From: Acidobacteriota bacterium
GTDB taxonomy: Bacteria > Acidobacteriota > UBA6911
DNA length: 64,000 nt
Assembly (NCBI GenBank): GCA_965249005.1
Contig: CBDFLD010000016.1
Span: forward strand, 342,264 to 406,263
Reading direction: 5' to 3'
Part shown: positions 723 through 20,771 of the stretch, piece by piece
How positions within the stretch are numbered: the stretch's first letter is position 1
Layout: every line of letters begins with the position of its first letter
Position numbers and translations under genes: made by a program
Notes under the pieces: generated by a model
The model's input: the letters and a program-made list of their open reading frames with translations, nothing else
Databases searched by the model: none
Told to the model about the DNA's origin: nothing

Positions 723-763
723 CGGGTGTTGCCCTCCAATGTGTCCTTATCATTCTCCGACGC

Positions 764-1108
764 TTATAAATAGGGATGCCGAAGGCGGCTGAAAGGTTGA
801 TATATTTCATTCAAATTGGAAATCCGGGCTGAGTCTGTCTGGCAAAAAGTAGCCTGGGGGACGTTTCTTCTTGCAATACGAATCGCCGACTGCGAAATGT
901 CTACCCCCACAACTTCGTGCCCCGCCTCCACGAAATGCCGGGCGGCGGATCCCGTATTGCAGCCAAAATCGAGAATGCGCGCGCTCCGCTTCCCGATTTT
1001 CCTCAATGCGTAGTCGACCCTTGCCCGGAAAGTTGGTTCCGTCTCCAATCCGGGCGAGTTCTCGATTGACGCGTATCGGTCTTGATAGTATTCGATCATC
1101 GAAGACAT
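764..1108 (-). CDS. class I SAM-dependent methyltransferase, short and possibly 3'-truncated by the adjacent IS1380
   Basis: From the internal Met, the ORF reads MSSMIEYYQDR...ILDFGCNTGSAARHFVEAGHEVVGVDIS, with motif I (DFGCNTG) and the acidic post-I (VGVD). At 115 aa it is short for this fold, and its C-terminus runs into AT-rich sequence next to the IS terminus. Confidence 0.5.
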   Translation of the reverse strand: MSSMIEYYQDRYASIENSPGLETEPTFRARVDYALRKIGKRSARILDFGCNTGSAARHFVEAGHEVVGVDISQSAIRIARRNVPQATFCQTDSARISNLNEIYQPFSRLRHPYL

Positions 1109-1110
1109 AT

Positions 1111-2301
1111 TCAGTTCATCCCACCCAGGTGCTGTCTCACGATTAGACGATAGAGATCCGCAAACCCTCGTGCGGCTGCATTTGGGGTAAATGTGGATTC
1201 GACGAGTTCGAGCCCGGCGGCCCCGCGTGTAGACCTTTCCGTTTGGTCTGTCAAAGCTTCTGCAAGTCCACGCTTCATATCGGTTCGGTTCCGGCTTATG
1301 ATCCATCCGGCACCGGCTTTCCGGACCGTCTCCGCAAGGTGTACATGGGTACTAATAAACACGGGCACCGACATCGAAAGCGCTTCGACCGCTGCAAACC
1401 CAAAGTTCTCGTGATGGGACGGGAGTGCCAGTATGGATGCCTCCTGCAATGCCGCCGTCTTTTTTTCTCCGTCCAGCCAGCCGGCAAAAATCACACGATG
1501 CCCGGATCGATGATCATTTGCCATATGCTTCAGCTGTGACACATATCGGGGATCCCCGTCACCTGCGACGAGTAGCCTCCACTGATTGAATTCCGGATGC
1601 TCGGCAAGATCCAGGAAGACTTCGAAAAGCAACTCTAGCCCCTTGACCGGGTGTAGACGAGACATCAACAACACGTACGGCCGCCTCCCCAGCCCGCGGT
1701 AGGCAGCGCGAAATTCCGCACAGGTGCGCGTGTCCGCCCGTTCCTTTGTCGCAATACCGGGCGGGATGACGACACCACGATCAAGGCCGAGTGCCCCTTC
1801 GGCTTGACGTTTTTCCTCTGTGCTCGTGTAATGAACGGCCGCCGCCCCCTCGAGCATTTGCTTGACGCCAAACTGCCAAAGGAATTTCTTCTGGTAGTGC
1901 TTCCTTTTCATACTCCAGTGAGAAAGCGAACCGATCGGCCGAACAACGTAGGGAACGTTCTGCAACCGGCAGAACCTTGCGGCGGCAATGCTCGAGTGAG
2001 AAAAAATTGCATCGATATGGACCAGATCAAAGGCATGGACATTCCCTTTTATCCACTGCGAAAGTTGTCTCGAGTATTTGAACCGTTCACTCCATTCCCG
2101 GCGGAAGAAGATGACTTGTGAACCATTGAACGAAATAGGTCTTCCCAGGTCAACGTCTAGCCTGCCATCGCCGTCCGCATCCGTAGTCGCCACCAGCGTC
2201 TCCACCCCTTGCCTGCCCAGACCTTCGCAGATGTCAAAAACGGCACGACTGGGGCCACCGTATTGCATCGCAACAGCAGGAATGACGTGGAGTACTTTCA
2301 T
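1111..2301 (-). CDS. GT4-family glycosyltransferase
   Basis: 396 aa. The N-terminus is MKVLHVIPA. The C-terminal EX7E motif is LPSHHENFGFAAVEALSMSVPVFIS. Confidence 0.85.
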   Translation of the reverse strand: MKVLHVIPAVAMQYGGPSRAVFDICEGLGRQGVETLVATTDADGDGRLDVDLGRPISFNGSQVIFFRREWSERFKYSRQLSQWIKGNVHAFDLVHIDAIFSHSSIAAARFCRLQNVPYVVRPIGSLSHWSMKRKHYQKKFLWQFGVKQMLEGAAAVHYTSTEEKRQAEGALGLDRGVVIPPGIATKERADTRTCAEFRAAYRGLGRRPYVLLMSRLHPVKGLELLFEVFLDLAEHPEFNQWRLLVAGDGDPRYVSQLKHMANDHRSGHRVIFAGWLDGEKKTAALQEASILALPSHHENFGFAAVEALSMSVPVFISTHVHLAETVRKAGAGWIISRNRTDMKRGLAEALTDQTERSTRGAAGLELVESTFTPNAAARGFADLYRLIVRQHLGGMN

Positions 2302-3176
2302 GATTGAGTTCGGTGCAACTTAGGAACCGGGCGGACGAACTCCCAGCTTCCGCGAGGGTCATAAGCTTTGGGAACATGCTCTAACTCGGACACATCACGG
2401 TTCTTCTCCGCTACCAGGAATATTGTCTTTCTGAACTTCTCTTGGCAGTACCGAAACGGAAGCTTCTCGAGAAGTCCGTACAAGCGAGACCACCCGCTTC
2501 GGTCGTAGACGTCCCAGTAGCCGGCTTCGACAATCCGAAAACCGCATAAGGAAACCAAATCCGTCAGCTCATCCGCGGTGAATAGATAGGAGTGTCTTTC
2601 ATATACGCTGGAACGGTACGCAGGAGTCGGTGAATGGCGATGAAACGGATTGGAAAACTGCGAGCCATTAGGCGTCGTCACCAGTAGCTTGCCGTGCAGA
2701 GGCAACCAGCGGTTGATATTCAGAAACATGACGTGCGGGGAGCGAATCATGTGCTCGATAATTTCACAGGCCAGGACCGTATCCGGCTCGGCATCCACAT
2801 CGAACAGTGTTCTCTCGAGGTTTGCCGAGTAATTGGTGACGGTGCTCTCGTTACCGGCTTCGGTTCGGATCCGATAGCAATGCGATGAGACCTCTATTTC
2901 ATCGGGCCAATCCGTAATCTCCTCCGCGGACACGGTACCGCAGACATCCAGCTCCGGATGATCAATGAGTTTCGACGTCATCGTCCAAGGGTGTGCGCCC
3001 AGTTCCAGGACGTTTCTCGATCCAATCTCGGCCAGCTTTGCCAGTACTGCCTCCATTCGCCTCTCATGATAGAGGGCGTAGGAAGCGAATCCCACCTTGC
3101 GTATGTCAATCAAGGTCTCGTCCGGCTTGGCTGCCGGATCATTCAACAGGGTCGTGGTCGCTGGTTCGGCTTGCAT
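2298..3176 (-). CDS. SAM-dependent methyltransferase (Methyltransf_23-like)
   Basis: 292 aa. NVLELGAHPW is a motif-I-like stretch and ACEIIEHM is motif-II-like. The gene overlaps the downstream glycosyltransferase by 4 bp, which suggests translational coupling. Confidence 0.55.
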   Translation of the reverse strand: MQAEPATTTLLNDPAAKPDETLIDIRKVGFASYALYHERRMEAVLAKLAEIGSRNVLELGAHPWTMTSKLIDHPELDVCGTVSAEEITDWPDEIEVSSHCYRIRTEAGNESTVTNYSANLERTLFDVDAEPDTVLACEIIEHMIRSPHVMFLNINRWLPLHGKLLVTTPNGSQFSNPFHRHSPTPAYRSSVYERHSYLFTADELTDLVSLCGFRIVEAGYWDVYDRSGWSRLYGLLEKLPFRYCQEKFRKTIFLVAEKNRDVSELEHVPKAYDPRGSWEFVRPVPKLHRTQS

Positions 3177-3227
3177 TCGGGTTTAGCTCCAGTCTCATTG
3201 GACCGAGCGAGATCGGTCATGAAGGCG

Positions 3228-4445
3228 TCAAGGGCTCGATGGGGAACGTGTTGTGCGTCCCGTCTTCCCCGACACCGTCTGTTGTAGTTGATCGACTCTA
3301 TTCAATCGAACGTCCGACAGTCCCGGACTCACCTTGATGAGCCGTCGCATTATTTCACTGGCTGTCGAGGTTGATAGTCCGTCCGGCGACACGTAGTTCA
3401 ACCGGATCTGCCCTTCAGACTGGGTTAATTGATAAGCAACCACCTCAGAAAACTCTTTGAGGGAGTGTGCAAAGGCCTCGGAGTGAATCGCACTGCCGTC
3501 CCCGAGCCGGACCACATCATTACAACGTCCGATGACCGAGTCGAATTGCTGGTCGAAGGCTGATTCGTTGGGATCGCACGAGATGAGATCCCCTAGACGA
3601 TATCGAACCAGGGGCACGCAACGAGGATACAGCGTGGTAATGACAATCTCGTGAGCGCCGTCCACTACTTTCGAGGGTTGTCCCTCTACAAAAAAGTGCC
3701 TCCAGAAGACAGCGTACCGCCCGTCGGCTTGCTGGTGCGCAATCGGCCCCGTTTCCATCGAGCCATATTCCATGGCCACCGGGACGCCGAGAACTTCCGA
3801 GATCAACTGTGCACTGTCGGTGCGCGGAAAGGACTCTCCTGTCCCGATCGCGACCTTCAATTGGAGCGCTTCGAAACGTGACTGGAGGTCCCGATTGATC
3901 CTCACCAGCCGGTCGAGAGCCACGGAATAGCCGATCAGAAAAGCCGGCTGGAACTCGAGCAACCTCTCCGCTGCCCCCCTCAGTCCGGGTTCACTAAGGT
4001 CGTAGGCCGAATGGCGATAGTACCCAAGCAGCCGGTCCTTGACGCGACGCTTGAGACTGTTGACTCTTCCCCGAAGCCCGGCGCCCAGAATATGACTGTG
4101 CCCCCAGACTAGGAACAGGCGATCGCTGGGCTCCACCCCGAACCAGCTTCGTCCAAGCCATATATCCTTGGTAGAGAACTCGAGTTCGGAATTCCACGAA
4201 GCTACTTGAACCGGTTGAGCCGTCGAACCTCCAGTGGTGCGAGTAAAGTCATCGGCCCGCGTCTTGTTCCTCAGATCCCCGGACGGATCCTGCAGCGTGC
4301 GTTTATCCATCGTGGGAACCACGGCCTGGAATTCGGACCAATCTGCAAATCGGTCGGGCAGGCGTCGCTCCTTGTGCAATCTGTGGAAATACGGCACCTG
4401 GTTGCGGATCGAGGCCCACTGGACATTGAACTGCTCCAGCGCCAC
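3228..4445 (-). CDS. CapK-like / phenylacetate-CoA-ligase-family adenylate-forming enzyme
   Basis: 405 aa. The TTGGSTAQP motif is P-loop-like for adenylate-forming enzymes, and overall the protein resembles CapK/PaaK (coenzyme F390 synthetase-like) enzymes. Confidence 0.5.
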   Translation of the reverse strand: MALEQFNVQWASIRNQVPYFHRLHKERRLPDRFADWSEFQAVVPTMDKRTLQDPSGDLRNKTRADDFTRTTGGSTAQPVQVASWNSELEFSTKDIWLGRSWFGVEPSDRLFLVWGHSHILGAGLRGRVNSLKRRVKDRLLGYYRHSAYDLSEPGLRGAAERLLEFQPAFLIGYSVALDRLVRINRDLQSRFEALQLKVAIGTGESFPRTDSAQLISEVLGVPVAMEYGSMETGPIAHQQADGRYAVFWRHFFVEGQPSKVVDGAHEIVITTLYPRCVPLVRYRLGDLISCDPNESAFDQQFDSVIGRCNDVVRLGDGSAIHSEAFAHSLKEFSEVVAYQLTQSEGQIRLNYVSPDGLSTSTASEIMRRLIKVSPGLSDVRLNRVDQLQQTVSGKTGRTTRSPSSP

Positions 4446-4546
4446 TCCCGAATCTCGAGCGGAGAGCGCGCCTTCCCGTAGAATAACCGCTGCTCCTCGA
4501 CCAATGGTCGGACTCTAGACGAACGTAGTTTCTCGACTCCTAACAT

Positions 4547-5656
4547 TTACAATACCGTGGAGACTCTTTCCTTGAAGCGCTCCTGAAAATGTCTTGCCGT
4601 AAAGCTCTCATGCAGCCTTCCGAACCCTCTTGCTCCCATCTTGCTGCAGAGGCCAGGATCGTTCAGAAGAGCGTGAAGCACAGAATAGAGCTCTTGCTCA
4701 TCGCTTTGGTCTTTCAACAGAAAGCCCGTTTCACCATGAACGATCACGTCCTCGGCGCCCTGGTCCCAACAGCCGACGCATGCCTTCCCCTCGTTCATCG
4801 CCTCCAGGAATGTTAGCCCGAACCCTTCTTGGGTACTGGGCATCACAAACGCGTAGCACCGTCGATACAATTCCCGCAATACCTCCACCGGAACCCATCC
4901 TGGGAAAAAGACGGATTCGCCGATACCCAGCCGGATGGCTACCCGCCTCAACCGGTCGATGTCTTCTCCCGGGCCGGCAAAGACGACCTGCAGGTGCCCG
5001 AATCCGTTCCGCAGCAAGGGAAGCACGTTCAGTAGTTCCGTATGACCCTTTTGGCGCTCATCGGGATCGATCCTCGCCACGTGCAACAACATTCGATCGC
5101 CGATGGATCTCCGGATCCCATCGGCTGCCTCGAGCGTCAGTTGTCCATCACTCTTGACAGGCAAAGTCGGGTTGAGCTCAAATCCGGGGGACAGCCCAAG
5201 TGGACACGCGTGCCCTTTGAATCTTCCCATTACTTGTTTCATCTTCTTCAAGGTGAATTCCGAATTGGTCAAGCAAAGGTCAGCCTTCCTGAACGACTGC
5301 CGACTCACCTTCCGAATCCTCTTCCAGGCCTCGGATCCATGCGCGAAGATAACTGTCTGAACGAGATTCAGGTTGGCAACTGGCAGAATCGGAAGAGCCA
5401 ATGTCACGTGGTCAAAACAGAAAATAGGCTTCCACGAAAGCGCCTGTATAAGCTTCAGAGAAAACCGCATTTTGTTTCCCTTCATCGCATCGAAGCGAAC
5501 CTGACTAGGAAGAAAGTCCGGACGGTCCGATGCATTCTCCAGCAGACTAATCACCGAGAGCTTCATTCGCCGTTCGGTGGCGAGGTCGTTCAACGCATGG
5601 AGAATATTGAGATTCGTGGTGGCAATACCGCCACACAGTCCTCGTGCGCCGGTCAT
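4547..5656 (-). CDS. GT4-family glycosyltransferase
   Basis: The EX7E motif is MPSTQEGFGLTFLEAMNEGKACVG. The likely start is MTGARGLCGGIATTNLN at 5656; the ORF stays open up to 5779. Confidence 0.8.
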   Translation of the reverse strand: MTGARGLCGGIATTNLNILHALNDLATERRMKLSVISLLENASDRPDFLPSQVRFDAMKGNKMRFSLKLIQALSWKPIFCFDHVTLALPILPVANLNLVQTVIFAHGSEAWKRIRKVSRQSFRKADLCLTNSEFTLKKMKQVMGRFKGHACPLGLSPGFELNPTLPVKSDGQLTLEAADGIRRSIGDRMLLHVARIDPDERQKGHTELLNVLPLLRNGFGHLQVVFAGPGEDIDRLRRVAIRLGIGESVFFPGWVPVEVLRELYRRCYAFVMPSTQEGFGLTFLEAMNEGKACVGCWDQGAEDVIVHGETGFLLKDQSDEQELYSVLHALLNDPGLCSKMGARGFGRLHESFTARHFQERFKERVSTVL

Positions 5657-5688
5657 GGCAAAGACTATTTGGGTGCGGCGGTATCTTT

Positions 5689-7248
5689 TCACAGAGGTTT
5701 CTTGGACTGATGCATGGATAGTACAACCGAATCGCGGCTGACCACTTTCGGGTCTCTTGATATGAACTCCATGAACCACGGCCCGGCGAAATAGATCAGC
5801 AGGATGAATATGATGAATGTTTGCAGGATACCACCGATCATGTAGGCAATCTCACCTTCGAAGCTAATGAAGTGTTGAATGAAGATTACGGTAGCGCTAG
5901 ACATCGCAATCATCGGGACGGGAGAGAATTTGAACAGCGCACCGTAGACCCCGCCGACAAAGGTACCCAGCACCAGGATGCAGAAGAACATCCCTATGAA
6001 ACCGAAGTCTATGTAAAACTGTGCCATGTAAGCGAGACCAACGGAGGTGCCCTCCTCCTCCCCTGCAACGACCGCACCGGCGTATTGGCTAACCAGCCAC
6101 GAATTGGATCCGAGATTGGGCTTTTCGGGAAAGAGAAATCGTGGTTTGGCGACATGCTCGAACACTCGGCCGGTCAGCATCCCACCCTCATGAGGCACGA
6201 CCTCCGGCACCCGATCCAAGACGAGAGAAAAGTAACCAATTCCGGACGACATCCGAGTCACCAGAGCTTCGAAAGCGGAAAACAGATCTAGGTTCTGCAT
6301 TGCTTCCTGAACGATCCCTGCAAACGAACCGACCTTTTCCATGGGCGAGCCAGAAATATCTCCCGACACAACTGCCGGTCTCCAATTCGGCTTGACCCCG
6401 CCTTCCCAGATCAACGCCATGCCGACGAGCAGGATGCACATGATTGCCAACGACGTCATGATGCGCCGGCGGTACTGACGCTCGCCCTTAGACTTCAGAT
6501 GAAGATGCAGGTCGGTCAGAAGCGCGATTACGATATAGAAGAGCAGCTCCTTGAAGTTTGACATGACCGAAGCGAACCGGGGAACCATCGCATAAATGAG
6601 AGCGGCTATCCCGTAGAGGTAGCCTCGCCGGCGGCGAACGATAACAAAGATCAACAGGAAAAGGAGAACCTCTCGAAACGATATCAGGTTGGTGATGATC
6701 TGCGATACGCGAAACGCTATGGCGGCAGGCGTGATTTCAATGAACCAGTTGATGGAGTAGAGCGCAATGACACTCCAGAATAGTCGTTTGACGTTGTACC
6801 GCGGCCCGATAGCCTGCTTGCTGTCCTTGAAGGACGGGCACTTGTTAAAGAACGGGTACAAACCGACTCTCATCCCGACAGCGAGGACAAAGAGTCCCGA
6901 CACAGACAGCAGGACCGCAAAGTCCAGGTTTCCGTAAAAGGGCAACGCAGGGAAGTGGCCTGTGAAATGATTGTACGCATAGCCCAGCACTATGAAGAGC
7001 CACTGATAGGCCATACAGAAAACCAAGACAGGGGGGTTTTCCTTGCGCCAGAGAATGCCCGCAACAGCAAATAGAACGAATACACAAAAACCGAGCACTG
7101 CGGACAGGCTGACGGCTCCCACCGCAACGCCCGCGATTGCCCCGCGCCAGATGAACCTTCGCTCCAACGGATAGTCCTTGAGCTTCTGGGGGCGCGCGCG
7201 GACGTTGAAGCCTTGCTTTGCCGTTGCCTCAGCCACGGAGTAGGACAT
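5689..7248 (-). CDS. Wzy-like O-antigen/EPS polymerase, polytopic membrane protein
   Basis: About 520 aa with at least 10 predicted hydrophobic helices and a large periplasmic loop. It has no soluble-domain motifs, and it sits inside a Wzx/Wza/Wzc locus. Confidence 0.6.
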   Translation of the reverse strand: MSYSVAEATAKQGFNVRARPQKLKDYPLERRFIWRGAIAGVAVGAVSLSAVLGFCVFVLFAVAGILWRKENPPVLVFCMAYQWLFIVLGYAYNHFTGHFPALPFYGNLDFAVLLSVSGLFVLAVGMRVGLYPFFNKCPSFKDSKQAIGPRYNVKRLFWSVIALYSINWFIEITPAAIAFRVSQIITNLISFREVLLFLLIFVIVRRRRGYLYGIAALIYAMVPRFASVMSNFKELLFYIVIALLTDLHLHLKSKGERQYRRRIMTSLAIMCILLVGMALIWEGGVKPNWRPAVVSGDISGSPMEKVGSFAGIVQEAMQNLDLFSAFEALVTRMSSGIGYFSLVLDRVPEVVPHEGGMLTGRVFEHVAKPRFLFPEKPNLGSNSWLVSQYAGAVVAGEEEGTSVGLAYMAQFYIDFGFIGMFFCILVLGTFVGGVYGALFKFSPVPMIAMSSATVIFIQHFISFEGEIAYMIGGILQTFIIFILLIYFAGPWFMEFISRDPKVVSRDSVVLSMHQSKKPL

Positions 7249-8374
7249 CTTCCACCTTTCGGGCGCTTTTGGTGATATCGAACAACTCCAGCGCCCTCTT
7301 CTTCCCCGCATCCCCTAGTCGCTCTCGCAACACGTCATCGTTCGCAAGCCGTGTGATACAGGCGGCCAGCTGATCCGGGCGATGCCTGTCGACCAGGAAA
7401 CCGGTCTCGCCATCGCGAACGATCTCGGGCGTGCCCCCTACCCTAGTTGCAATAACGGGCAGTCCACTGGCCATGGCTTCAATATTGACGTTTGGCGCGG
7501 GATCTTCGTATCGAGACGGAACCACGAGCATATGCAGCTGCGCATAGACCGACTCGATCCTGTCGGTCCAACCGGCAAATCTGACGTATTCCTGCAGATG
7601 ATGCTTCAGAATGAAATCGAACAAGTACTGATGATAGGCAACCTCCTTGTCGAGCTTGCCCACCAATACGAAGCGACACCTCGATGTCGTTGCTGCAACC
7701 ATCTCTGCGGCTAACAAGAAGTCTTCGATCCCCTTCTTTATGCTGAATTGCCCGGCAAAACCCACAAGAACCTCAGCTGTCTCATCTCGCCGCTCCCGGA
7801 TTTTCTCGCTTGATGCCGGGTGAGAGAACTTGTCGAGGTCAACACCGTTGTGCACCACAAGCGTCTTCTCTTCCGAAACCCCCACTCTCAAGAATCCTCT
7901 TTTGACAGCCAGCGAATTCATCACAACCCTAGAACTTGTCCGGTTGATCCATCGGGCCACCCACCGAGAAACGAGGCTGTCATCGGGAATGTCGCCCACA
8001 TAAAAAACAATGGTCCTCCGAAGCACGAACCTCAAGAACAGGATAGCCGGTAAGGCATTGACAAAGGCATGGACGTTCAGAACGAGGACGACCCGGCATC
8101 GCCGTTTGACACAGGTAACGACCACGACCACGTAAAGTATCGGCATCTGTAGAATATTGATGAGCGTCCAGAGGGGATGAGCCCGACCCAGGTACCCGAA
8201 CGATGTCTTCGTGAAAGGAAGATTGTGCCGCGTCAGCAAGCGACTCACAGTCCCATCCTCCCACCTAGAGATCAAGAAAACCGGCCTCACGCGCTTCATG
8301 TGAAGCAAAGATGTGACAGCCCTCGTTTCCCTGCCGAAGGCCTCAGCGCCCATTCCCAATATCAGACTGTTCAC
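7229..8374 (-). CDS. GT4-family glycosyltransferase
   Basis: The EX7E region is VPSRYEDPAPNVNIEAMASGLPVIATRVGGTPEIV...GETGFLV. Confidence 0.85.
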   Translation of the reverse strand: MNSLILGMGAEAFGRETRAVTSLLHMKRVRPVFLISRWEDGTVSRLLTRHNLPFTKTSFGYLGRAHPLWTLINILQMPILYVVVVVTCVKRRCRVVLVLNVHAFVNALPAILFLRFVLRRTIVFYVGDIPDDSLVSRWVARWINRTSSRVVMNSLAVKRGFLRVGVSEEKTLVVHNGVDLDKFSHPASSEKIRERRDETAEVLVGFAGQFSIKKGIEDFLLAAEMVAATTSRCRFVLVGKLDKEVAYHQYLFDFILKHHLQEYVRFAGWTDRIESVYAQLHMLVVPSRYEDPAPNVNIEAMASGLPVIATRVGGTPEIVRDGETGFLVDRHRPDQLAACITRLANDDVLRERLGDAGKKRALELFDITKSARKVEDVLLRG

Positions 8375-8395
8375 GATTCAAGTCACCCAAACACT

Positions 8396-12207: not shown

Positions 12208-13528
12208 CGGCCAGGTTGAAGACCTGGGACAACCGATCCGTCATGGACCGGGCGGTAAAGGGGGCGAACTTCTCCCAGCGGGTTGGCGGTGTATAGCTCG
12301 ATGGAAGCTCCAGAACGTTGGCCAGGCGTCGGTAAACTTCCTGGACCTGATCCGCGACAGGGCGCTCCGGCCCGAAGGTCTCCACAACGCCGGCTCGAGT
12401 ATCCCGCAGGATCGGTACGACGCTGCTCTGCTCGTGAAACACGGCGACGATTGGCCGTTGAGCGAGAATGTACGGAAATATCTTCGAGGCCGTGTAGTGC
12501 GGCTCCTGAGACCCAACGATTAGCAGTGCGTGCGAATCGATGAGGATTTGCAGCGCATCCAGGTAGGCAACTCGGCCGGGATGTTCATCGACATGCTTTT
12601 CGAGGCCGAGCTCTCTTGCGACGGGTAGCACTTGATAGAGTCCATTGGCGTTGGCTGCGTAGGTCGTTCCGATGAAATGAAGGCGCAAGCCCTCGAAAAC
12701 CTGCGGCTTCCGACAAAGACCAAGACGCACCGCTTCGAATACCGTACGGAGGGCCGGGATCATATCGGCTCCCCCTCTGCCAACGTAGCTCACGTGCAGC
12801 AACCCGTCACCGGGCGAAAAAAAACGATTGGAGCGCGGGTTTTGGCGCAGGTATTGAAAGTCCGACGCTTCGCCGCCATATGGGATCTCGGTGGCATCGG
12901 ATTCCTTGAGCCACCCATAGCGCGCGACGATTCCGTCGGTCGTACCCTTGGAGACTCCGATGATGTGCTGCACATTCTTCAGCACGTAGGGTTCCAAAAC
13001 GCTCGATACATGATGTGAGAGGTTGCGCTTCCAGTGCCCCTTTTTTCGCGGTTGATTGCGATAGATCGTGCTCACCCAGGGATCAATGTAATCAATCACG
13101 TAAGGAATTCGAAAGCACTCATGCGCGAGGCGAGCAATGACCGCGGGGATGAATGGCGGCACAGAGACGAAGACAAGATCCACCCGGATCTTGCGACACA
13201 AGCGCCACACCGCATACCAGTGGTTCCAGAAGCTTCGAATACCTATATCACTGAAACCCAGCTGTCTCGTCAATGGTACCGGCAGCGCACCCGTCCGGAT
13301 CACCTGCATGCGTTTTGGCACCAACTCCAGGTTCTCGAGATCGGGCGAACCCTCGAGAAACTTCGTCTTGGTTGCAATGACAGTAGGCTCCCAACCGAAC
13401 TCAGGGAGATGCCTGGCAAACAGTCGAATCCTCAAGGCCGGTGGCAGACTGCTCGGGGTGAAGTCCGGACCGACGATCAGGACTCGCTTGTTGCCGTTAG
13501 GTGTCGGACCGTTCATACCTTTACGCAC
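12179..13528 (-). CDS. glycosyltransferase (GT4-like, WcaI-type)
   Basis: 449 aa. It has the Rossmann-like VLIVGPDF N-terminus and a GT1/GT4 C-terminal fold, but lacks a perfect EX7E motif. Confidence 0.55.
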   Translation of the reverse strand: MRKGMNGPTPNGNKRVLIVGPDFTPSSLPPALRIRLFARHLPEFGWEPTVIATKTKFLEGSPDLENLELVPKRMQVIRTGALPVPLTRQLGFSDIGIRSFWNHWYAVWRLCRKIRVDLVFVSVPPFIPAVIARLAHECFRIPYVIDYIDPWVSTIYRNQPRKKGHWKRNLSHHVSSVLEPYVLKNVQHIIGVSKGTTDGIVARYGWLKESDATEIPYGGEASDFQYLRQNPRSNRFFSPGDGLLHVSYVGRGGADMIPALRTVFEAVRLGLCRKPQVFEGLRLHFIGTTYAANANGLYQVLPVARELGLEKHVDEHPGRVAYLDALQILIDSHALLIVGSQEPHYTASKIFPYILAQRPIVAVFHEQSSVVPILRDTRAGVVETFGPERPVADQVQEVYRRLANVLELPSSYTPPTRWEKFAPFTARSMTDRLSQVFNLAVANQKYAHK

Positions 13529-14743
13529 TCAGTTATCGAGGATCCTCAGGAGCTTGTCTTGTTCCCTGTCCCAGCAATAGGACTCGCGCGCGACCTTCCA
13601 GGATGCACGCTGAGCATCTCTCAGCAAGTCCGGGTTCTCGATGTAGTTCTGGAGGATCCGAGCCAACTCCTCGGGGCGGCCGGACGGATATAGGAAACCG
13701 ACCGACGGAATCCGATTCAGGAGCTCACGCTGGCCCGGTGTGTCGGTTGCCGCAATCGCCAATCCGGCCATGAGATAATTGAATATTTTGTTGGAAATCG
13801 TCCTTCTGCAGTTCTCGTGATCCGACCGCTCCAGTGCCAGCCCGACATCATACCGGTCCATCGTCCTCATCAGTCTTTCCGGCGCAACGAGTGGAGCGAA
13901 ATGGATTTGCGCTTGCACCCCCCGCTCGGCTACAAGCTTCATCAGACCGTCCCGGTAGCTGTCGCCGATGCGGCCGCGGAGATGGAGTTCGGCCTGCGAT
14001 CCCAACTCCGCCATGGACTCGATGGCATCTTCGATTCCTCTTCCGGGTCCAATCGTTTGCCCGAACCAATGGACGCGTAGAGGCAGAGAGAGTGTCCGCT
14101 TCACTGGTTCCTGCAATCCGGCAGACAGCGAGATGGGGAATACGTTGTGAAGTACCACGGGGGAGCAGACGCCGTATCGGGAAACAAGAAAACTCGCAAT
14201 GGCCTCCGATGGCACAGTAATGTAATCACACCGAGCCAGATATGTACTCTCGATGTGCTGTACGATCTTCGGTGGATTACTGTCAGCTTCGGTCAGGAGG
14301 TCTTCGCAATCAAAGCCGAGGCGCCCCCCCCATCGCTTTACTCCCGCCGCGGCGGCAGGAAGCGCACCCTGAGTGTGCGCAATGAACCAATCCGCCGGCT
14401 CCGATCCTGCAATGGAGCAAACGGCCTGCAAGCCTGGCATATAGGCCGATTCCGCCACCCAGGACCATCGAAGGCCGCGATCAAATCCCCACCTTGCTAG
14501 TTTTGTAGCCCCACCCATCCAGAGCCAGCGCCAAGCATGAATTCCGTTTCTTCTCACATCAACCACCTGAAGCCGCCATTTTCTCCCACTCATCAAAGCA
14601 AGATCGAATTGAGTCAACTCAGGATCGCATTGCCGGGACACGACGCGAACATCATGGCCTCTCGCGGAAAGTAGATCGGCTTCCCGGAGGGTCCTCGGCT
14701 GAAACGAAACGTGGTGCGGCGTAATAAGACAAATGCGTGCCAC
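13529..14743 (-). CDS. glycosyltransferase (GT1/GT4 family)
   Basis: 404 aa. The N-terminus MARICLITPHH and the RSDHENCRRTISNKIFNYLMAGLAIAATDTPGQRELL region fit a GT4 C-terminal domain. Confidence 0.6.
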   Translation of the reverse strand: MARICLITPHHVSFQPRTLREADLLSARGHDVRVVSRQCDPELTQFDLALMSGRKWRLQVVDVRRNGIHAWRWLWMGGATKLARWGFDRGLRWSWVAESAYMPGLQAVCSIAGSEPADWFIAHTQGALPAAAAGVKRWGGRLGFDCEDLLTEADSNPPKIVQHIESTYLARCDYITVPSEAIASFLVSRYGVCSPVVLHNVFPISLSAGLQEPVKRTLSLPLRVHWFGQTIGPGRGIEDAIESMAELGSQAELHLRGRIGDSYRDGLMKLVAERGVQAQIHFAPLVAPERLMRTMDRYDVGLALERSDHENCRRTISNKIFNYLMAGLAIAATDTPGQRELLNRIPSVGFLYPSGRPEELARILQNYIENPDLLRDAQRASWKVARESYCWDREQDKLLRILDN

Positions 14744-14758
14744 TTTGGACCTCTCGCA

Positions 14759-15634
14759 TCACCGAGTCTTTCTCAACCAAAGACTCTGGGCCATTCTTCC
14801 TCGCAAGTGCGGAAAATACTCGGCAAACGTCGGCTTGGTTCGCTGGAGATAATGACCGGCCCACAGCACCTCAAAATCGTTTGTCGACATGAGAAGGCAT
14901 TGAACGATGTATTGTTCGGTGTAGCCGGATTTCTCTCCCATTACCCATTTCTTGGGATAGTCATAGGGGAGAAAAATGTCGTGGATGTGAATCAGCACAC
15001 CGGGGGCTAGTTGAGGAATGATATTCAGGAAAAGAAAGACAACGTCGCTGCCGGTCTTGATTTGGTGGCTCGAGTCGATGAAAAGGATGTCATTTGCTTG
15101 CAGACTGGTGAGTAGCGCCTTCGACTGTACCGTCTCAACTCGCTGACTGTAGAATTCGTCCACCAATGGCTTCACATCGTTCCGAGGACTCGGGTCCACC
15201 GAAACCAATCGCGTATCCAAGTTTCCATCCAAGATAGCAAGGCGGGAGACCTTGGTGCTGTTTCCACTCCCGATTTCAACGATGGTACGGGGTCGATGCT
15301 CTCTAACAACGGTGTAGAGGATTTCCGCATCAGGGCTCGTGAACCACACCTGATCGAAACCGTAGGACACCGGGTTGGCAGTCGGCTCTTGTAAATCTTG
15401 AAAACGGTCCCGGTACTTTCCGAGAGCCGCAAAAAGGCAACTGGAACACGCCTGGCTCAGCGGTGGCGGAATCTCAAACTGAGGTTGGTCGAATTGACCC
15501 TGCTGATCCAGCAGCGCGAGTCGATTGTCTTCGATTCTGTCGACGGTCAATGTATCGATCCGAAGATTCAGATGCTTGAGCCAGCAGTTAACATATCGCT
15601 TCGCAGCAGTCGTGATCGCCATGCTACCTCGCAA
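14759..15634 (-). CDS. class I SAM-dependent methyltransferase (FkbM/TylF-like O-methyltransferase)
   Basis: IVEIGSGNSTK is motif I, followed by SVDPSP and LFIDSSH. Confidence 0.6.
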   Translation of the reverse strand: MRGSMAITTAAKRYVNCWLKHLNLRIDTLTVDRIEDNRLALLDQQGQFDQPQFEIPPPLSQACSSCLFAALGKYRDRFQDLQEPTANPVSYGFDQVWFTSPDAEILYTVVREHRPRTIVEIGSGNSTKVSRLAILDGNLDTRLVSVDPSPRNDVKPLVDEFYSQRVETVQSKALLTSLQANDILFIDSSHQIKTGSDVVFLFLNIIPQLAPGVLIHIHDIFLPYDYPKKWVMGEKSGYTEQYIVQCLLMSTNDFEVLWAGHYLQRTKPTFAEYFPHLRGRMAQSLWLRKTR

Positions 15635-17099
15635 GAACCAAAAGACGTGAGAGGTGTTGCCCGCCCGGTACCCAGCGGACCAATTCTGACAAGAGCGACG
15701 AGAACAGCAAGCGAAGGACGATGCAGTAGATCACCGTAAAAGTTAGTCCATAGACGGCTGCGATCGCAAAACTATGCAGATCAAGATCCCACCCGGAGCG
15801 CGCGCCCTCGCACATGACCCAGGAACCCAAGGCGGCGGCAACAGGGGGGATCAGACTGTTGAATATGACCCTGGGGGCAATGGAACGATTACGGCTCAGC
15901 CCATACAAGAGATACAGGTACCCAAATCCCTGCACCACCGTAAGCCCGATAAAGTACGCCGGAATGTTCAAGGGCAAGAACCAGTATAGCGACGCCGACG
16001 TTCCCAACAGAAGAAAGACGTCCACTTGGAGACATTGCTTCTGCTGCTGATTCGCCAGTGCCAGCATATAGACCCCGTGGTAGAGAGCCCAGGAGACCCC
16101 AGCGATGAACGCCCAGGGAAGAAGCGGCACGGCGTCCAGCCAGTTATCACCGTAGATGAGCAAGACCAGCGGCTCTGCGAGAATTGCACATACGACCGCA
16201 AGCGGGATCACTATCCAGGAAACGCTACTGAGCACGAGTCGACAGGCTCGTTCGTACGATGGTGTCTTCGGTTCGATGCGGGTAAGGACGGGATAAAGTG
16301 ATTGCAACAGTAGGAAAGCAAACTTGAAGCAAACGATTTGAGCCAAACCCACGGCCCTCCCGAATATCCCAAAACCCGCAAAGCCGTATATTCGTACGAA
16401 CACCGCACTCTCCAGAAGAGGCCGCCCGTACGTCGCGATCTCACTCAGGATCCGAGTGCGTCCGAACCGTAGTGCTGGTCCGTAATTCTTCGAGCTCCAT
16501 TTCCAGTTTGGTTTCCACTTTTTCACGAAAAACAGATCGTAGACGAACGGCAACGGGACGAGCATCCCCGGAAGGATGAGTGCATAAACGCCCAGCCCGT
16601 TGGCGGCCATCAGGACCGCTACCGAGGCATTCAACACCAGGCCTATCGCTTGCAAGGAACGCAGACGGCCCCAGTTCAAGTTTTTCTCCAGCATCTTTAC
16701 TCTAAACTCGCTGGGCCAGTGAAAAAGGAATATGGGAGACATGACGTGCAGAAAGAAGGCGATTCCACCGTAGGTTTCGTTCGACCACAGCAGTATGGCC
16801 GCCACATTGGTAATGACGAACATCCCCAGATGAATCACGCCCCCCGCGGTAAAATGATCCTGATAGTGGACATCTTTTGTTCCTCGAATCTGCAAGGTAT
16901 GGGCAACAAAGCTACGAAAGGAAAAAACGTAGAGAAAGCCAATGATCCCATTCACGAGTCCATATTGGCCGTAGACATCCGGCGAGAGGTACCTCACCAG
17001 AATCAGCGTAACCCCGAACTGGAGTACATCACGGAACATACTGAAGCTGGTATTCCACAACACGCCGCGCTGAGCTTGCTGAGCCAATGTGCGCATCAA
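15624..17099 (-). CDS. wzx: Wzx-type polysaccharide flippase (MOP superfamily)
   Basis: 491 aa with about 12-14 transmembrane helices. The N-terminus RGVLWNTSFSMFRDVLQFGVTLILVRYLSPDVYG is typical of Wzx/polysaccharide biosynthesis proteins. Confidence 0.8.
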   Translation of the reverse strand: MMRTLAQQAQRGVLWNTSFSMFRDVLQFGVTLILVRYLSPDVYGQYGLVNGIIGFLYVFSFRSFVAHTLQIRGTKDVHYQDHFTAGGVIHLGMFVITNVAAILLWSNETYGGIAFFLHVMSPIFLFHWPSEFRVKMLEKNLNWGRLRSLQAIGLVLNASVAVLMAANGLGVYALILPGMLVPLPFVYDLFFVKKWKPNWKWSSKNYGPALRFGRTRILSEIATYGRPLLESAVFVRIYGFAGFGIFGRAVGLAQIVCFKFAFLLLQSLYPVLTRIEPKTPSYERACRLVLSSVSWIVIPLAVVCAILAEPLVLLIYGDNWLDAVPLLPWAFIAGVSWALYHGVYMLALANQQQKQCLQVDVFLLLGTSASLYWFLPLNIPAYFIGLTVVQGFGYLYLLYGLSRNRSIAPRVIFNSLIPPVAAALGSWVMCEGARSGWDLDLHSFAIAAVYGLTFTVIYCIVLRLLFSSLLSELVRWVPGGQHLSRLLVLAR

Positions 17100-17207: not shown

Positions 17208-18311
17208 CTATTGGGCCCCGATGATGAGTAAGCTTGTAAAGATCCCGGAGATACCGTTGAGCAGGTTCTTGCCGATTCTCTTGGTCGTCGACCCGGGAAC
17301 GATGATCACATCGTTTCGCGCCAGCTCGACGTCGTTGGCCTTTCCCTTCATCACGTCGTTCACGTTGACGGCAATCTGAGTGGCGGATGATCCGTCCGGT
17401 TCGCGACGCATGATGGTGGTTTTGTTGGCGGAGGCAGTGTCGAGCATTCCACCAGCTGTGGCCAAAGCCTTGGAAAGCGTGATCCGTTCGTTCCTCCGGA
17501 TTTGAAACGCTCCCGACTTCTGCACATCTCCCAGGACGTAGTAGTAATGTCCCTCACGCTCGGGGACGGTGATGACGTCCCTGGAGTATATCGGAATGTT
17601 CAATCGATGGTTCCCGACCACGAGCAGGTCCTCCAGATCGACCTCGATGGTTTCCGAGTACCCATTTGGTTCAGAAGAGACCGGGATTCCTGCAGCCTTG
17701 CCATCGTCCGGCTCATCTTCACCTGAAGGAACTCTGTGAATGTACACCCTGGAGTAATCTGCGTCCTTTTCCAGTCCCCCGGCTAGCGATATCGCATCCA
17801 CCAGACTCATTTGGCGTGTCAGCTGGTAAGTGCCGGGCCTCTGGACGGAACCCAGCACATTGAAGAACTGGCTCTTGTATTCCGTTACCTTCACCGTTAC
17901 CTGGGGATCATTCAGTATGGAAGCCTCGAGCAGTGTGGCGATCTTGACCTCCGCATCCCGTGCCGCCAGACCTAGCAGCTGCACTTCATCGATAAAAGGG
18001 AGCAAAATCCGGCCCTTTGAATCCAGCGACAGGCTTTTTTGATTCAGTTCTGGAATCCCGAACACACTCACTTCGACAACATCGCCCGGTCCCAGCAAGT
18101 AATCCTGGGAGTGGCGCGATAGCAAAGCCAGTCTCTTGTTGAGGGACTCGCTATCGGGTTCCGAGGTTGCGTTTACGGCCTGTTGGCTGAGAAGTTGCTC
18201 GATGGAAAGAGGCACATGCTTCCGAGCCGTTTCATCTTCTGACAGATTCTGTGCCTTTACACTGCATGGGATCAGAAACAAAGCAAACATCAGCACCAAT
18301 GAGTTTTTCAT
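17208..18311 (-). CDS. wza: Wza-like polysaccharide export outer-membrane protein (Poly_export plus SLBB domains)
   Basis: It has a signal peptide (MKNSLVLMFALFLIPCSVKA). The Poly_export motif is LGPGDVVEVSVFG, and there are two soluble ligand-binding beta-grasp (SLBB) repeats (YQLTRQMSLVDAISLAGGL... and FQIRRNERITLSKALATAGGM...). Confidence 0.85.
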   Translation of the reverse strand: MKNSLVLMFALFLIPCSVKAQNLSEDETARKHVPLSIEQLLSQQAVNATSEPDSESLNKRLALLSRHSQDYLLGPGDVVEVSVFGIPELNQKSLSLDSKGRILLPFIDEVQLLGLAARDAEVKIATLLEASILNDPQVTVKVTEYKSQFFNVLGSVQRPGTYQLTRQMSLVDAISLAGGLEKDADYSRVYIHRVPSGEDEPDDGKAAGIPVSSEPNGYSETIEVDLEDLLVVGNHRLNIPIYSRDVITVPEREGHYYYVLGDVQKSGAFQIRRNERITLSKALATAGGMLDTASANKTTIMRREPDGSSATQIAVNVNDVMKGKANDVELARNDVIIVPGSTTKRIGKNLLNGISGIFTSLLIIGAQ

Positions 18312-18344
18312 AATACCTTCCTCAAGACTTCTTTCCCTTCACCG

Positions 18345-20771
18345 TTACACGGCGTCCTGAGAATCATGTTGGCCATCCGGGCGCACACCATACCCATATC
18401 CGTAGCCATACTTTTTCCCGTAGCCGTAGTAGTAGTACTTCGAATAGTAGTAGTAATCCGCCGAGTGAACGTTGACGTCGTTCAGGAGTACGCCGATGAT
18501 GTGGGCATGGACATCCTGGAGGAGTCGCTTCGTTCGCTGCACGGCTTCCTTGGGAGTCTCCCCTCCCTTTACGACCAGGATGACACCGTCTGATTTCGTC
18601 GCCAAAATCCGGGCGTCCGTTACCGACAGAATCGGTGGGGAATCGATCACGATGTGGTCAAAATACTCTTCCAGCAACACGATCCCCTGCTCCATTCGAT
18701 GAGAGCCGGCCAGTTCGGCCGGGTTCGGAGGAATCCGGCCCGTAGTCACTGCAAAAAGGTTCGGGATATCTGTTTCCTGGATCAGGGAAGACAAGTCTGT
18801 ATTCCCAGAAAGATAACTGCTCATTCCGATGTTGTTTTCGAGGTTCAGGGCTCGATGCAAACGGGGGTTCCTCATGTCGAGGTCGAGAAGTATGACCTTG
18901 TCACCCGTCTGAGCCAGGGTGATCGCAATGTTGATCGCGGTGGTCGTCTTCCCTTCGCCCATTTGGCTAGAGGTTACGAGCAACGACTTGGGTGGTCGCC
19001 CCTTCCCGGAGGAAAGCAGTATTGAAGTCCTCAAGTTCCGATACGCTTCGGAAATCAACGACTTGGTGTCATTGTACGTGATGAGCTCGACCGAGGTCGG
19101 CCGACCCGGGACTTTCTCCTTGTTGTCTTCCGCGGCGTCGCCCTTCGTGCTGTCCGTCAGTAGTTTTTTCTGAGCAGGAGTCATGAAGGAGCTCAGGGCC
19201 GGAATCACCCCCAAAGAAGGTAACTTGATGTGACGGTCCACATCTTCCGGAGTCTTGACGCTACTATCCAAGTACTCGAGAAAGAAGGCTAGGGCCACGC
19301 CAATCAAGACACCAAAAACAAGCGCTATCATCAAATTGCGCGCCTTGTTCGGCTTGATCGCCCCACCCGGTGCTTCAGCCTCGTCCAATACGTGGATATT
19401 ATTCGATCTCAAACCGGCAGAAACGGTTGCCTCTTCTACCCGTTGGACCAAACCATCGTGTATCTCCTTGACAGTATCGGCTTCTCTCTTGAGTATCCCG
19501 TATTGGATGGAGCTCTGATTGATCTTGTTGGTCTCTGTTTTCTGCGCCTGCAAGGAGCGCTTCAGAAGCCCCTCCCGGTTGAGGGCAGTTCGATAAGCGG
19601 TCCCTATCTCCTGGATCGCCTTCTGTGACTCCTCCCTCAGTTGCTGCTCGGCCTCGGCGAGCTGAGACGCGACCTTCGCCAATTCCGGATAGTTGCCCTT
19701 GAAGACTGCCGACAACCGAGCTTTCTCCTGTCTGAGATCTTGCACCTTCAGCTCGGCGTTTCTCATTTCTCCGGTGCGCAGAACATCAGGGAATTGCTCG
19801 GGCGTGGAGTCCTTTACAATCTGCCAGATCGATTCTCTTTGAATTCGATCAGACTGTGCTGCGGTCAACGCGGCGTTCAAGTCTGAAAGCTTCTGCTGGC
19901 TGACGTTCTCTTCACCGCCGATATTGTAGATGTCATTTTCCTTACTGAATCGCAGCAGTTCTTGCTCCGCTTCCTCGACTTTGCTCCGCAACGTTTCAAT
20001 CTGGTCTTGGAGGAAGTCCTTGCTTTGGTTCGTGGACTCCAACTTGGTTTCGAAGTTCATCTCAATGTACTCGCCCGCCAAGGTATTCACTACCTCGGCG
20101 CCAAGTTGTGGGTCGTGATGCTCGAAACTGAGGTCGACGAGTCGGGTGTTCTTGACCGGGGCCACCGTTAGGTTGGCGACGAGGTATCCGGCCAAGCGAG
20201 AGTATTTCGAGGCATCCCGATCATCGCCCCGTTCCCCCCCGTCTTCCTGCAATTCGCCCAGCAAAGGAACCTGAGCCCCCATGCCGCGCACCCAGCTCAA
20301 CACTCTACTCGTTACGGTCGGATCCTCCGTCAACAAGAAGCGAGGGTCTTCCTCCAGGTTCATGGCAACGATAACCCTATCTGCGAGAGTCTGCGACTCG
20401 AGGATCTTGAATTGAGTCTGCAAGTACTCTTGGCTCTTGGCATAGACGGAGTATGGGTCGTAGGTATTCTGAAAAGGCAGGACATTCGATTGCTCGGCGT
20501 CTATTTGCAACCTCAGGGTCGCCTGGTAGATGGGAGTGGCTTTCCACGACGAGATGACCGACAAGCACGTCGCGGTGAAAACGATGGCCAACACAGTCCA
20601 ACGACGCTTCAAAAGCACACGCCAGTAATCGAGGATATGGATCCGATCGTCCTCTTCCTGTTCGATTTGTTCGTAAAGGTTCGGAGCGTGAGACTGGTAC
20701 TGGACCTCAGGAAGCTGCGATAGCTCGCTTGACCGGACTAGCTTGTTCGGCTCAATGTTGTTCTTGTCCAT
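18345..20771 (-). CDS. wzc: Wzc-like polysaccharide co-polymerase tyrosine autokinase (PCP-2a)
   Basis: 808 aa. It has an N-terminal transmembrane helix, a periplasmic coiled-coil domain and a second transmembrane helix. The Walker A motif is GEGKTTTAINIAITLA, and the C-terminal tyrosine cluster is ADYYYYSKYYYYGYGKKYGYGYGYG. Confidence 0.9.
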   Translation of the reverse strand: MDKNNIEPNKLVRSSELSQLPEVQYQSHAPNLYEQIEQEEDDRIHILDYWRVLLKRRWTVLAIVFTATCLSVISSWKATPIYQATLRLQIDAEQSNVLPFQNTYDPYSVYAKSQEYLQTQFKILESQTLADRVIVAMNLEEDPRFLLTEDPTVTSRVLSWVRGMGAQVPLLGELQEDGGERGDDRDASKYSRLAGYLVANLTVAPVKNTRLVDLSFEHHDPQLGAEVVNTLAGEYIEMNFETKLESTNQSKDFLQDQIETLRSKVEEAEQELLRFSKENDIYNIGGEENVSQQKLSDLNAALTAAQSDRIQRESIWQIVKDSTPEQFPDVLRTGEMRNAELKVQDLRQEKARLSAVFKGNYPELAKVASQLAEAEQQLREESQKAIQEIGTAYRTALNREGLLKRSLQAQKTETNKINQSSIQYGILKREADTVKEIHDGLVQRVEEATVSAGLRSNNIHVLDEAEAPGGAIKPNKARNLMIALVFGVLIGVALAFFLEYLDSSVKTPEDVDRHIKLPSLGVIPALSSFMTPAQKKLLTDSTKGDAAEDNKEKVPGRPTSVELITYNDTKSLISEAYRNLRTSILLSSGKGRPPKSLLVTSSQMGEGKTTTAINIAITLAQTGDKVILLDLDMRNPRLHRALNLENNIGMSSYLSGNTDLSSLIQETDIPNLFAVTTGRIPPNPAELAGSHRMEQGIVLLEEYFDHIVIDSPPILSVTDARILATKSDGVILVVKGGETPKEAVQRTKRLLQDVHAHIIGVLLNDVNVHSADYYYYSKYYYYGYGKKYGYGYGYGVRPDGQHDSQDAV

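Follow-up and report, generated by a model that had tools for sequence, protein, structure and literature searches.

The Wza, Wzc, Wzx and Wzy proteins are common to group 1 capsules and to exopolysaccharides (EPS) such as colanic acid. In the Vibrio polysaccharide (VPS) system of Vibrio cholerae, VpsH, a protein related to phenylacetate-CoA ligase and to CapK-like proteins, was found to be required for glycine to be added to the GulNAcA residue of the lipid-linked VPS disaccharide (2026, mBio, PMC13463779). Here, a locus of 17 genes was analysed in a stretch of 64,000 nucleotides from an Acidobacteriota bacterium (GenBank assembly GCA_965249005.1, contig CBDFLD010000016.1, positions 342,264 to 406,263 of the forward strand), which is called the window at its full length of 64 kb. 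The region is probably a Wzx/Wzy-dependent heteropolysaccharide locus (for an EPS or a capsule) with Wza/Wzc export and a damaged distal end, and as such it is a known type of pathway and not a new kind of system.

The 17 long open reading frames (ORFs) of the locus all lie on the minus strand and tile positions 764-20771 with gaps or overlaps of 0-108 nucleotides, in an operon-like packing; they were numbered from the proximal g1 (18345-20771) to the distal g17 (764-1108). Fifteen of them are intact with preserved motifs, g14 being frameshifted and g17 truncated. An earlier note, made from the letters of this DNA alone, had described 17 co-directional genes, and these proved to be real; its tally by gene type adds up to 18. 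A compositionally foreign locus was considered and rejected, as the G+C content (0.53-0.58) is the same as in the rest of the window. Pfam and NCBIfam profile scans were run on all 17 products, and Pfam scans also on the other long ORFs of the window. For comparison, homologues of g12 and g14 led to three loci from metagenomes or metagenome-assembled genomes (MAGs) and to 63 loci in named genomes, the latter retrieved by a contig scan with the g14 alignment, and all of these were searched by tblastn with the 17 products. The genome-contig scan with g16 alone retrieved no relative.

Export, glycosyl transfer and the candidate polymerase

The Wzc, Wza and Wzx components of a Wzx/Wzy-dependent pathway, with export by an outer-membrane polysaccharide export (OPX) protein and a PCP-2a polysaccharide co-polymerase, were recognised in g1, g2 and g3, respectively. 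The product of g1 (808 amino acids) was assigned as a Wzc-type PCP-2a co-polymerase and tyrosine autokinase by TIGR01007 (202.7 bits, cut-off 108) and by its Wzz, GNVR and AAA_31 domains, and it carries two transmembrane segments, the Walker A motif GEGKTT and a C-terminal tyrosine cluster (YYYYSKYYYYGYGKKYGYGYGYG). The Wza-type OPX protein g2 (17208-18311, 367 amino acids) contains two SLBB domains, is matched by Poly_export (67.1 bits, cut-off 28) and begins with a signal-like hydrophobic segment. For g3 (15624-17099, about 490 amino acids), a Wzx flippase of the MOP family with many hydrophobic segments, the score to Polysacc_synt_3 was 118.8 bits (cut-off 23), and a sub-threshold match to the MOP flippase model NF007773 was also obtained. 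The Wzx/Wzy-type locus with Wza/Wzc export and with wzc, wza and wzx at the proximal end, as proposed in the earlier note, is thus supported, with scores above the cut-offs for Wzc, Wza and Wzx. A Wzb-type phosphatase was detected neither as an LMW-PTP or PHP domain by Pfam nor by tblastn with E. coli Wzb against the six-frame translation of the window at E <= 0.01 (the Wzb, WcaJ and WecA queries used in this work were the authentic E. coli K-12 sequences from the annotated genome). Likewise, no attachment gene for a Wzi-like lectin or a WaaL ligase was detected in the Pfam scans of the locus and of the other long ORFs of the window.

Six GT4/GT-B glycosyltransferases (g5, g6, g9, g11, g13 and g16), which are mutually unrelated beyond the family level, were given by the Pfam and NCBIfam scans, in place of the seven GT4/GT1 enzymes counted before. 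The GT4-type (GT-B) enzyme g5 (13529-14743) exceeds the cut-offs of Glyco_trans_1_4, Glycos_transf_1, Glyco_trans_4_4 and Glyco_transf_4, while only the N-domain was recognised in the GT4-like g6 (12179-13528; Glyco_transf_4, 34.7 bits, cut-off 28.5), the first gene of the cassette described below, the homologues of which (27-55% identity) hold the same position in related loci. The cassette genes g9 (9121-10437, true start probably near 10335), g11 (7229-8374) and g13 (4547-5779, start codon uncertain) encode GT4 enzymes with Glycos_transf_1 scores of 99.5, 118.9 and 100.2 bits, respectively, and the identities of their homologues are 42-58% in cassette-bearing loci for g9, 41-42% in L001, L006, L007 and L031 for g11, and 39-55% in cassette loci for g13. 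The last of the six, g16 (1111-2301), is a GT4 enzyme of the cassette with Glyco_trans_4_4 and Glycos_transf_1 domains, and it was aligned end-to-end with the models of cyanobacterial HpsP (NF038295, 282.7 bits, cut-off 550) and of XrtY-associated XYAG1 (NF046085, 192.8 bits, cut-off 400). Because both scores are far under the curated cut-offs, g16 is classified as a homologue, and not an equivalog, of the HpsP and XrtY-associated glycosyltransferases.

The candidate repeat-unit polymerase is g12 (5689-7248, 519 amino acids), a Wzy-like protein with many transmembrane helices and no Pfam family, the true start of which is placed at 7248 because the 519-residue product is identical to the database protein P0001. 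Its family is sizeable and without a Pfam model: in an exhaustive profile search, the number of cluster representatives was 781 at E <= 1e-30 and rose to 4035 at E <= 1e-3. The oligosaccharide repeat-unit polymerase model TIGR04370 was matched by 30 of 32 family members (best E = 5e-9) and the XrtY-associated Wzy-like model NF046084 by 12 of the 32 (best E = 2e-12), and a few distant relatives gave sub-threshold matches to PF14296 and PF01901. The AlphaFold model of g12 is confident and all-helical (predicted local distance difference test (pLDDT) 87.9, predicted template modelling score (pTM) 0.89); the invariant charged residues are R290, R332, E354, R370, K376 and D414, and most of them fall in a conserved extramembrane helical region at residues 296-405. 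From its context and remote homology, g12 was accepted as a candidate polymerase. The Wzy-like polymerase proposed earlier accordingly keeps its family-level likeness to TIGR04370 and its multi-helix membrane character, but g12 itself is only remotely Wzy-like and falls under every curated threshold.

The closest non-identical homologues of g12, P0002 and P0038 (60% identity), from a related genome, carry an in-frame N-terminal PqqD-like domain of about 90 amino acids, followed by a linker rich in proline and glutamate, and such a fusion of a PqqD-like domain to a Wzy-like protein occurs in five members of the cluster. In the pathways of ribosomally synthesised and post-translationally modified peptides, the usual role of PqqD-type domains is to bind peptides.

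Tailoring genes and the distal end

Methyltransferase folds were recognised in g4, g7, g10 and g15 at full length and in the fragment g17, all of which exceed the Pfam cut-offs and are mutually unrelated in sequence, in agreement with the five distinct methyltransferases, the most distal a fragment, of the earlier note. Canonical motif I and profile scores above threshold were found for g4 (14759-15634, Methyltransf_24 class I; PF13578, 52.1 bits, cut-off 26.3; IGSGNS within IVEIGSGNS), for g7 (11473-12207, Methyltransf_11-type; PF08241, 34.6 bits, cut-off 21.2; LGCG within LHLGCG) and for g10 (8396-9124, Methyltransf_11 class I; PF08241, 66.9 bits; VGCGDG within VLDVGCGDG). Homologues of g4 are present in 11-12 related loci at varying positions (39-50% identity) and those of the cassette gene g10 in 12 loci (45-54% identity); g7 is accessory and specific to the window, and no homologue of it was found by tblastn in the cassette-bearing loci. 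The Methyltransf_23-like g15 (2298-3176; PF13489, 33.2 bits, cut-off 27) is the most conserved gene of the cassette (42-62% identity across loci). Its motif I reads E-x-G-x-H-P-W in place of GxGxG and is invariant in 10 homologues, and its profile gave weak matches to the solved class I methyltransferases 2p7h (E = 1e-3) and 3cc8.

The putative SGNH/GDSL protein g8 (10332-11489) exceeds the cut-offs of two lipase models (Lipase_GDSL_2, 34.3 bits against 32.9; Lipase_GDSL, 32.1 bits against 23.6), and the membrane anchor noted before corresponds to a single N-terminal hydrophobic transmembrane helix at residues 7-25. The GDS block I, a candidate Gly and an Asn are present. From the anchor and the positive-inside rule the SGNH domain would face the periplasm. 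Like g7, g8 is accessory and specific to the window: no counterpart was found by tblastn in the collinear cassette of other loci. In a Chlamydiae locus, an SGNH gene was seen beside the g11 homologue (Pfam table). Searches of PDB sequences with g4 and g8 by phmmer were uninformative.

The earlier assignment of a CapK/PaaK-like adenylating enzyme holds for g14 (3228-4546), which gave no Pfam match and was recognised as PaaK-like by profile and fold. The ANL motifs TGGST..P, EYG..E, YRxGD, GRxND and the C-terminal GK are invariant in a 40-sequence family alignment and present in g14, and the family profile matched PaaK-family PDB sequences with a best E of 8e-14. With the AlphaFold (AF2) model (pLDDT 88.6), Foldseek gave a match to PaaK2 (2y4o, E = 6e-21, template modelling score 0.61); PaaK1 and BT_0428 (E about 1e-20, score about 0.6) and the amide- or ester-forming PaaK-family ligases NatL2, AjiA1 and ClxA were also matched. 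The reading frame is not intact at full length, a lesion that the earlier note missed: g14 carries a deletion of one nucleotide near 4441-4443, where one base is lost in comparison with the 94%-identical P0045 (TGGCAGCTGGAG -> TGGCGCTGGAG), so that the annotated product begins at GTG 4445 and the conserved N-terminal 35 codons (MLGVEKLRS...EIREW) start at 4546 in another frame. P0045, a homologue from a sister assembly, has an intact N-terminus, and after about residue 343 it has an unrelated tail that looks like an independent frameshift; the ligase gene thus seems damaged at different sites in two close relatives.

At the distal end, g17 (764-1108, 114 codons) is a 5' fragment of a class I methyltransferase gene (Methyltransf_25, _23 and _12), in which the methyltransferase-derived part spans about 830-1108. 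It retains motif I and the next acidic strand and matches only the first ~60 profile positions, the catalytic domain being incomplete; homology to the L004 homologue stops at residue 93, and the ORF ends 21 codons on. The element that truncates it is the end of an IS1380-family insertion sequence (IS) at 1-826 (minus strand), which runs off the window and contains the transposase ORF 3-722 (NF033539, 178.9 bits, profile positions 1-223 of 419), so that the IS noticed before at the start of the window is confirmed and its family named. The junction was placed from where the g17 homology ends; since no similarity was found by blastn or tblastn between this copy and the second IS1380 copy at 27568-29073, the IS end is not definable by comparison of the copies. 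To judge from this junction, the locus is cut by IS1380 at about nucleotide 826, and its distal end is damaged.

No priming phosphoglycosyltransferase (PF02397, PF00953) was found by Pfam and NCBIfam scans among the 17 products or by Pfam among the other long ORFs of the window, and no match was obtained at E <= 0.01 by tblastn with E. coli K-12 WcaJ and WecA against its six-frame translation. Nucleotide-sugar genes are likewise absent from the locus, and no locus-linked nucleotide-sugar enzyme was found among the other long ORFs of the window. On both counts the results agree with the earlier note. A priming enzyme is encoded at a distance of 2-6 kb beyond the g16 homologue in four of the related loci (WcaJ-type in L007, L031 and L049, WecA-type in L017); at the corresponding place the window has the stump of g17 and the IS, and there it ends.

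The conserved cassette, the proposed pathway and rival explanations

A collinear cassette with the order g6-(x)-g9-g10-g11-g12-g13-g14-g15-g16 was found in about 20 of the retrieved loci. The gene order is identical to that of the window in two Verrucomicrobiota MAGs (L006 and L007), and close variants occur in Pirellulales, Blastocatellia and other Acidobacteriota, Candidatus Entotheonella, a Chlamydiae MAG, Nevskiales and Parasphingorhabdus, as well as in Caulobacter ginsengisoli DSM 18695 (L050) and Caulobacter sp. SLTY (L057). By tblastn, g7 and g8 are an insert between g6 and g9. On this comparison, g6 and g9-g16 are regarded as one copy of a collinear cassette spread among many phyla, and g7 and g8 as local additions. 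Wza and/or Wzc homologues adjoin the cassette in L005, L007, L019, L031 and L049. The Pfam-annotated relatives carry from 3 to 6 or 7 methyltransferases per locus, together with sulfotransferases and carbamoyltransferases, and rich tailoring is therefore normal for the cassette; the locus does not have unusually many tailoring genes, as had been thought.

Taken by itself, this standard Wzx/Wzy-Wza/Wzc polysaccharide cluster of an uncultured-type lineage is of little importance; of wider interest is the conserved cassette that it brings to light, in which several phyla share the pairing of a Wzy-like family without a Pfam model with a PaaK-like ligase and with several methyltransferases. No description of this cassette was found in the literature searched on XrtY, HpsP and Acidobacteria EPS. 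The cassette (g6 and g9-g16) consists of four to five GT4 enzymes, the Wzy-like g12, the PaaK-like g14, g10 and the invariant, atypical g15, with 35-60% identity across Verrucomicrobiota, Planctomycetota, Acidobacteriota, Chlamydiota, Entotheonella and Caulobacterales. It is tentatively proposed, and with some doubt, that it specifies a single conserved exopolysaccharide, as yet undescribed, which would carry methyl groups and amino-acid amides, would occur widely in bacteria of soil and fresh water and would have spread horizontally, with g12 as a new structural Wzy family. Should this be true, a horizontally spread and widely shared matrix polymer would be at hand. Amino-acid decoration and O-methylation affect matrix charge, hydrophobicity and soil aggregation, and because VpsH has been shown to attach glycine to a uronic acid, the cassette offers many natural test cases for such decoration of environmental EPS, including culturable Caulobacter.

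In the proposed pathway, a priming phosphoglycosyltransferase from outside the window would load the first sugar phosphate onto undecaprenyl phosphate, and the six cytoplasmic GT-B/GT4 enzymes (g5, g6, g9, g11, g13 and g16) would then lengthen the lipid-linked repeat unit, with an order and sugars that are conjectural. To judge from their families, the methyltransferase-fold proteins g4, g7, g10, g15 and formerly g17 would tailor the lipid-linked unit, for which g14 would make an acyl-adenylate of a carboxylate. VpsH is the best functional precedent for g14, and by analogy g14 would most likely convert a sugar carboxylate into its adenylate and then into an amide, the most likely reaction being that of a uronic acid with an amino acid or an amine. 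The unit would be flipped by Wzx (g3) and polymerised in the periplasm by the Wzy-like g12, the periplasm-facing SGNH protein g8 would add or remove an ester, and chain length and export would be governed by Wzc (g1) and Wza (g2). The step assigned to g8 is the weakest of this mechanism.

Several observations weigh against parts of this scheme. The score of g12 to TIGR04370 is 25 bits, under the cut-off of 40, and its model gave no convincing match to any solved structure. The canonical GxGxG is absent from g15, a protein of methyltransferase fold with a putative SAM-binding function. In g8 the C-terminal NGHW is without a clear Asp/DxxH and only the first half of the SGNH profile aligns, and as Pfam and NCBIfam scans of the locus gave no AT3 or MBOAT partner, its activity could be that of a transferase or of an esterase. 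A uronic-acid substrate of g14 is without local support, since tblastn with the E. coli UDP-glucose 6-dehydrogenase Ugd detected no UDP-sugar dehydrogenase gene, either in the window or in the loci that bear the cassette. As for the frameshift of g14, it could be a local assembly error, while a generally error-prone assembly is unlikely because the long housekeeping genes of the window are intact throughout. The initiating enzyme had been supposed to lie elsewhere or beyond the IS, and a position beyond the IS gains support from the four related loci with a priming enzyme at the corresponding place. As no such enzyme is seen within 10 kb in about 16 of the roughly 20 loci with the cassette, this position is plausible, not demonstrated.

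Three other explanations were weighed against a Wzx/Wzy-dependent locus with a decorated product. That the locus is a decaying remnant, in which IS1380 cut off the distal part including the priming enzyme, g14 became a pseudogene and the ancestral polymer was lost or altered, appears rather improbable. Such decay would account for the truncation of g17 by the IS at about codon 93, for the one-nucleotide deletion of g14 relative to P0045 and to the family consensus, for the broken C-terminus of P0045 itself in the sister assembly, for the four IS elements of the window, one of which appears to split another methyltransferase gene, and for the lack of a priming enzyme in 64 kb. However, the 15 intact genes with their preserved motifs speak against it, and the intact state of all long housekeeping genes in the window excludes a general decay. 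Moreover, none of the ANL core motifs is lost from g14, translation of which could begin anew at GTG 4445; most of the N-terminal segment is likewise missing from P0075, the annotated homologue of Salinibacter ruber; and it is common for a priming enzyme to be encoded at another place in the genome. The view that the product is a cell-bound capsule or another Wzy-built surface glycan, and not a released EPS, is somewhat less improbable, though it too is doubtful: Wza and Wzc would mark a group-1-capsule-type pathway and nothing in the locus separates the two, but the attachment genes named above were not detected, and the distinction would leave the mechanism unchanged.

It is unlikely, and more so than decay, that the part of the methyltransferase-fold and SGNH proteins is other than the predicted decoration of the polymer, in which case a heavily O-methylated and acylated product would be an overstatement. 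Under this explanation g15 could be a binding protein or an enzyme that does not methylate, the substrates of some methyltransferases could be nucleotide-sugar precursors or the amino-acid substituent, and the role of g8 could be that of an esterase or a trimming enzyme. The invariant, atypical motif I of g15 with its marginal matches to solved methyltransferases, the incomplete SGNH features of g8 in a locus with no acyl-donor translocase, and the mutual unrelatedness of the five methyltransferases, which need not share a substrate class, are in its favour. On the other side, motif I is canonical in g4, g7 and g10, the scores of which lie above the Pfam thresholds, methyltransferases are constant in cassette loci that hold little besides glycosyltransferases and export genes, and g15, with up to 62% identity, is evidently under strong selection as a part of the pathway. 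A Wzx/Wzy-dependent locus with a tailored product is retained as the probable explanation, and the heavily O-methylated, probably acylated or amino-acid-substituted polymer of the earlier note is retained in a weaker form, as methylation is suggested by fold family and acylation by a lone SGNH protein, g14 and g17 are damaged and motif I of g15 is atypical.

Surroundings of the locus and comparison with known systems

Upstream of g1 the locus is bounded by an IS200/IS605 transposase gene (21218-21652, minus strand; Y1_Tnp, 152.9 bits; NF033573, 163.7 bits, cut-off 55). A promoter and terminator scan upstream of g1 gave nothing over chance level, and no match was obtained in an Rfam scan of the whole window. 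The remainder of the window is of housekeeping character (UvrC, IleRS, LspA, LolA, ClpB and GrpE). The best named matches of IleRS were Acidobacteria/Acidobacteriota MAGs (68-69% identity) and the closest non-identical match overall had 72% identity; the host probably belongs to an Acidobacteriota lineage that has been sampled sparsely. The 64 kb hold four IS elements, which belong to three families (two IS1380, one IS200/IS605 and one IS256/Mutator) and lie at 1-826, 21218-21652, 27568-29073 and 35890-37209; at least two of them disrupt genes, and the genome appears IS-rich.

An unrelated biosynthetic cluster of lasso-peptide type (22891-33013, plus strand) adjoins the EPS locus and contains genes for a B2 protease (22891-23430; NF033537, 85 bits, cut-off 33), a lasso cyclase/asparagine-synthase homologue (23427-25289; NF033535, 452.6 bits, cut-off 525), an NTP_transf_5 protein (29857-31059) and an ABC exporter (30749-33013), all on the plus strand; neither a PqqD/B1 gene nor a precursor peptide was identified in this cluster. 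The asparagine-synthase gene was considered as an EPS amidotransferase and rejected, as it adjoins the B2 protease and scores 452.6 bits with the lasso cyclase model against 225.7 bits with the amidotransferase model of the XrtA/PEP-CTERM system. A PrmA/PRMT-like methyltransferase gene (26665-29836) appears split by an IS1380-family element into an N-terminal part (26665-27456) and a PRMT C-terminal domain (29333-29836), with the transposase (297.5 bits) at 27568-29073. Between the ABC exporter and the IS256 element lies the gene of a 722-residue protein (33614-35782, plus strand), in which an FGE-sulfatase/EgtB-like domain (172 bits) forms the C-terminal part, while the N-terminal half, about 470 residues long, is without assignment. 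Further on, a CDP-alcohol phosphatidyltransferase (38830-39564), a sugar-1-phosphate nucleotidyltransferase with a left-handed beta-helix tail (41698-42771) and an inositol monophosphatase (47772-48578) lie within 10 kb and may form a pathway for an inositol lipid or an inositol solute. The nucleotidyltransferase is the only gene of nucleotide-sugar type in the window and lies 21 kb from the EPS locus.

The locus would work in the way of the E. coli colanic acid and group 1 capsule systems, with which it has in common the PCP-2a tyrosine autokinase with its C-terminal tyrosine cluster, the Wza OPX protein, the MOP flippase, several GT-B glycosyltransferases, a candidate polymerase with multiple transmembrane helices and the co-directional, operon-like layout with wzc and wza promoter-proximal. 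It differs in that a WcaJ-type enzyme, Wzb and nucleotide-sugar genes are not in the locus, in the gene order (wzc-wza here, wza-wzb-wzc in E. coli) and in the tailoring, which is by methyltransferases and an adenylating enzyme here and by acetyl- and pyruvyl-transferases in colanic acid; E. coli WcaD gave no match to g12 by tblastn at E <= 0.01. With the VPS system of V. cholerae it appears to share the Wzx/Wzy pathway, GT4 enzymes and a PaaK/CapK-like protein, which is VpsH acting on the lipid-linked unit there and g14 here, a likeness that was drawn from family description. Unlike VPS, the locus has no uronic-acid epimerase/dehydrogenase module, its ligase gene is frameshifted, and it carries a set of methyltransferases that VPS is without.

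The XrtY-associated EPS set (NF046085, NF046084) and cyanobacterial HpsP (NF038295) resemble the locus in the end-to-end alignment of g16 and in the partial match of the g12 family to the Wzy-like model, while g16 scores far below the curated cut-offs of 400 and 550 bits, respectively; an exosortase/PEP-CTERM gene was not detected in the Pfam scans of the window ORFs. Finally, the PaaK-family ligases (PaaK1, PaaK2, BT_0428, NatL2, AjiA1 and ClxA) share with g14 the two-domain ANL fold and the conserved motifs, including the C-terminal GK lysine, at an identity of only 16-20%, and whereas these ligases serve in aromatic catabolism or natural-product synthesis, the context of g14 is a polysaccharide cassette.

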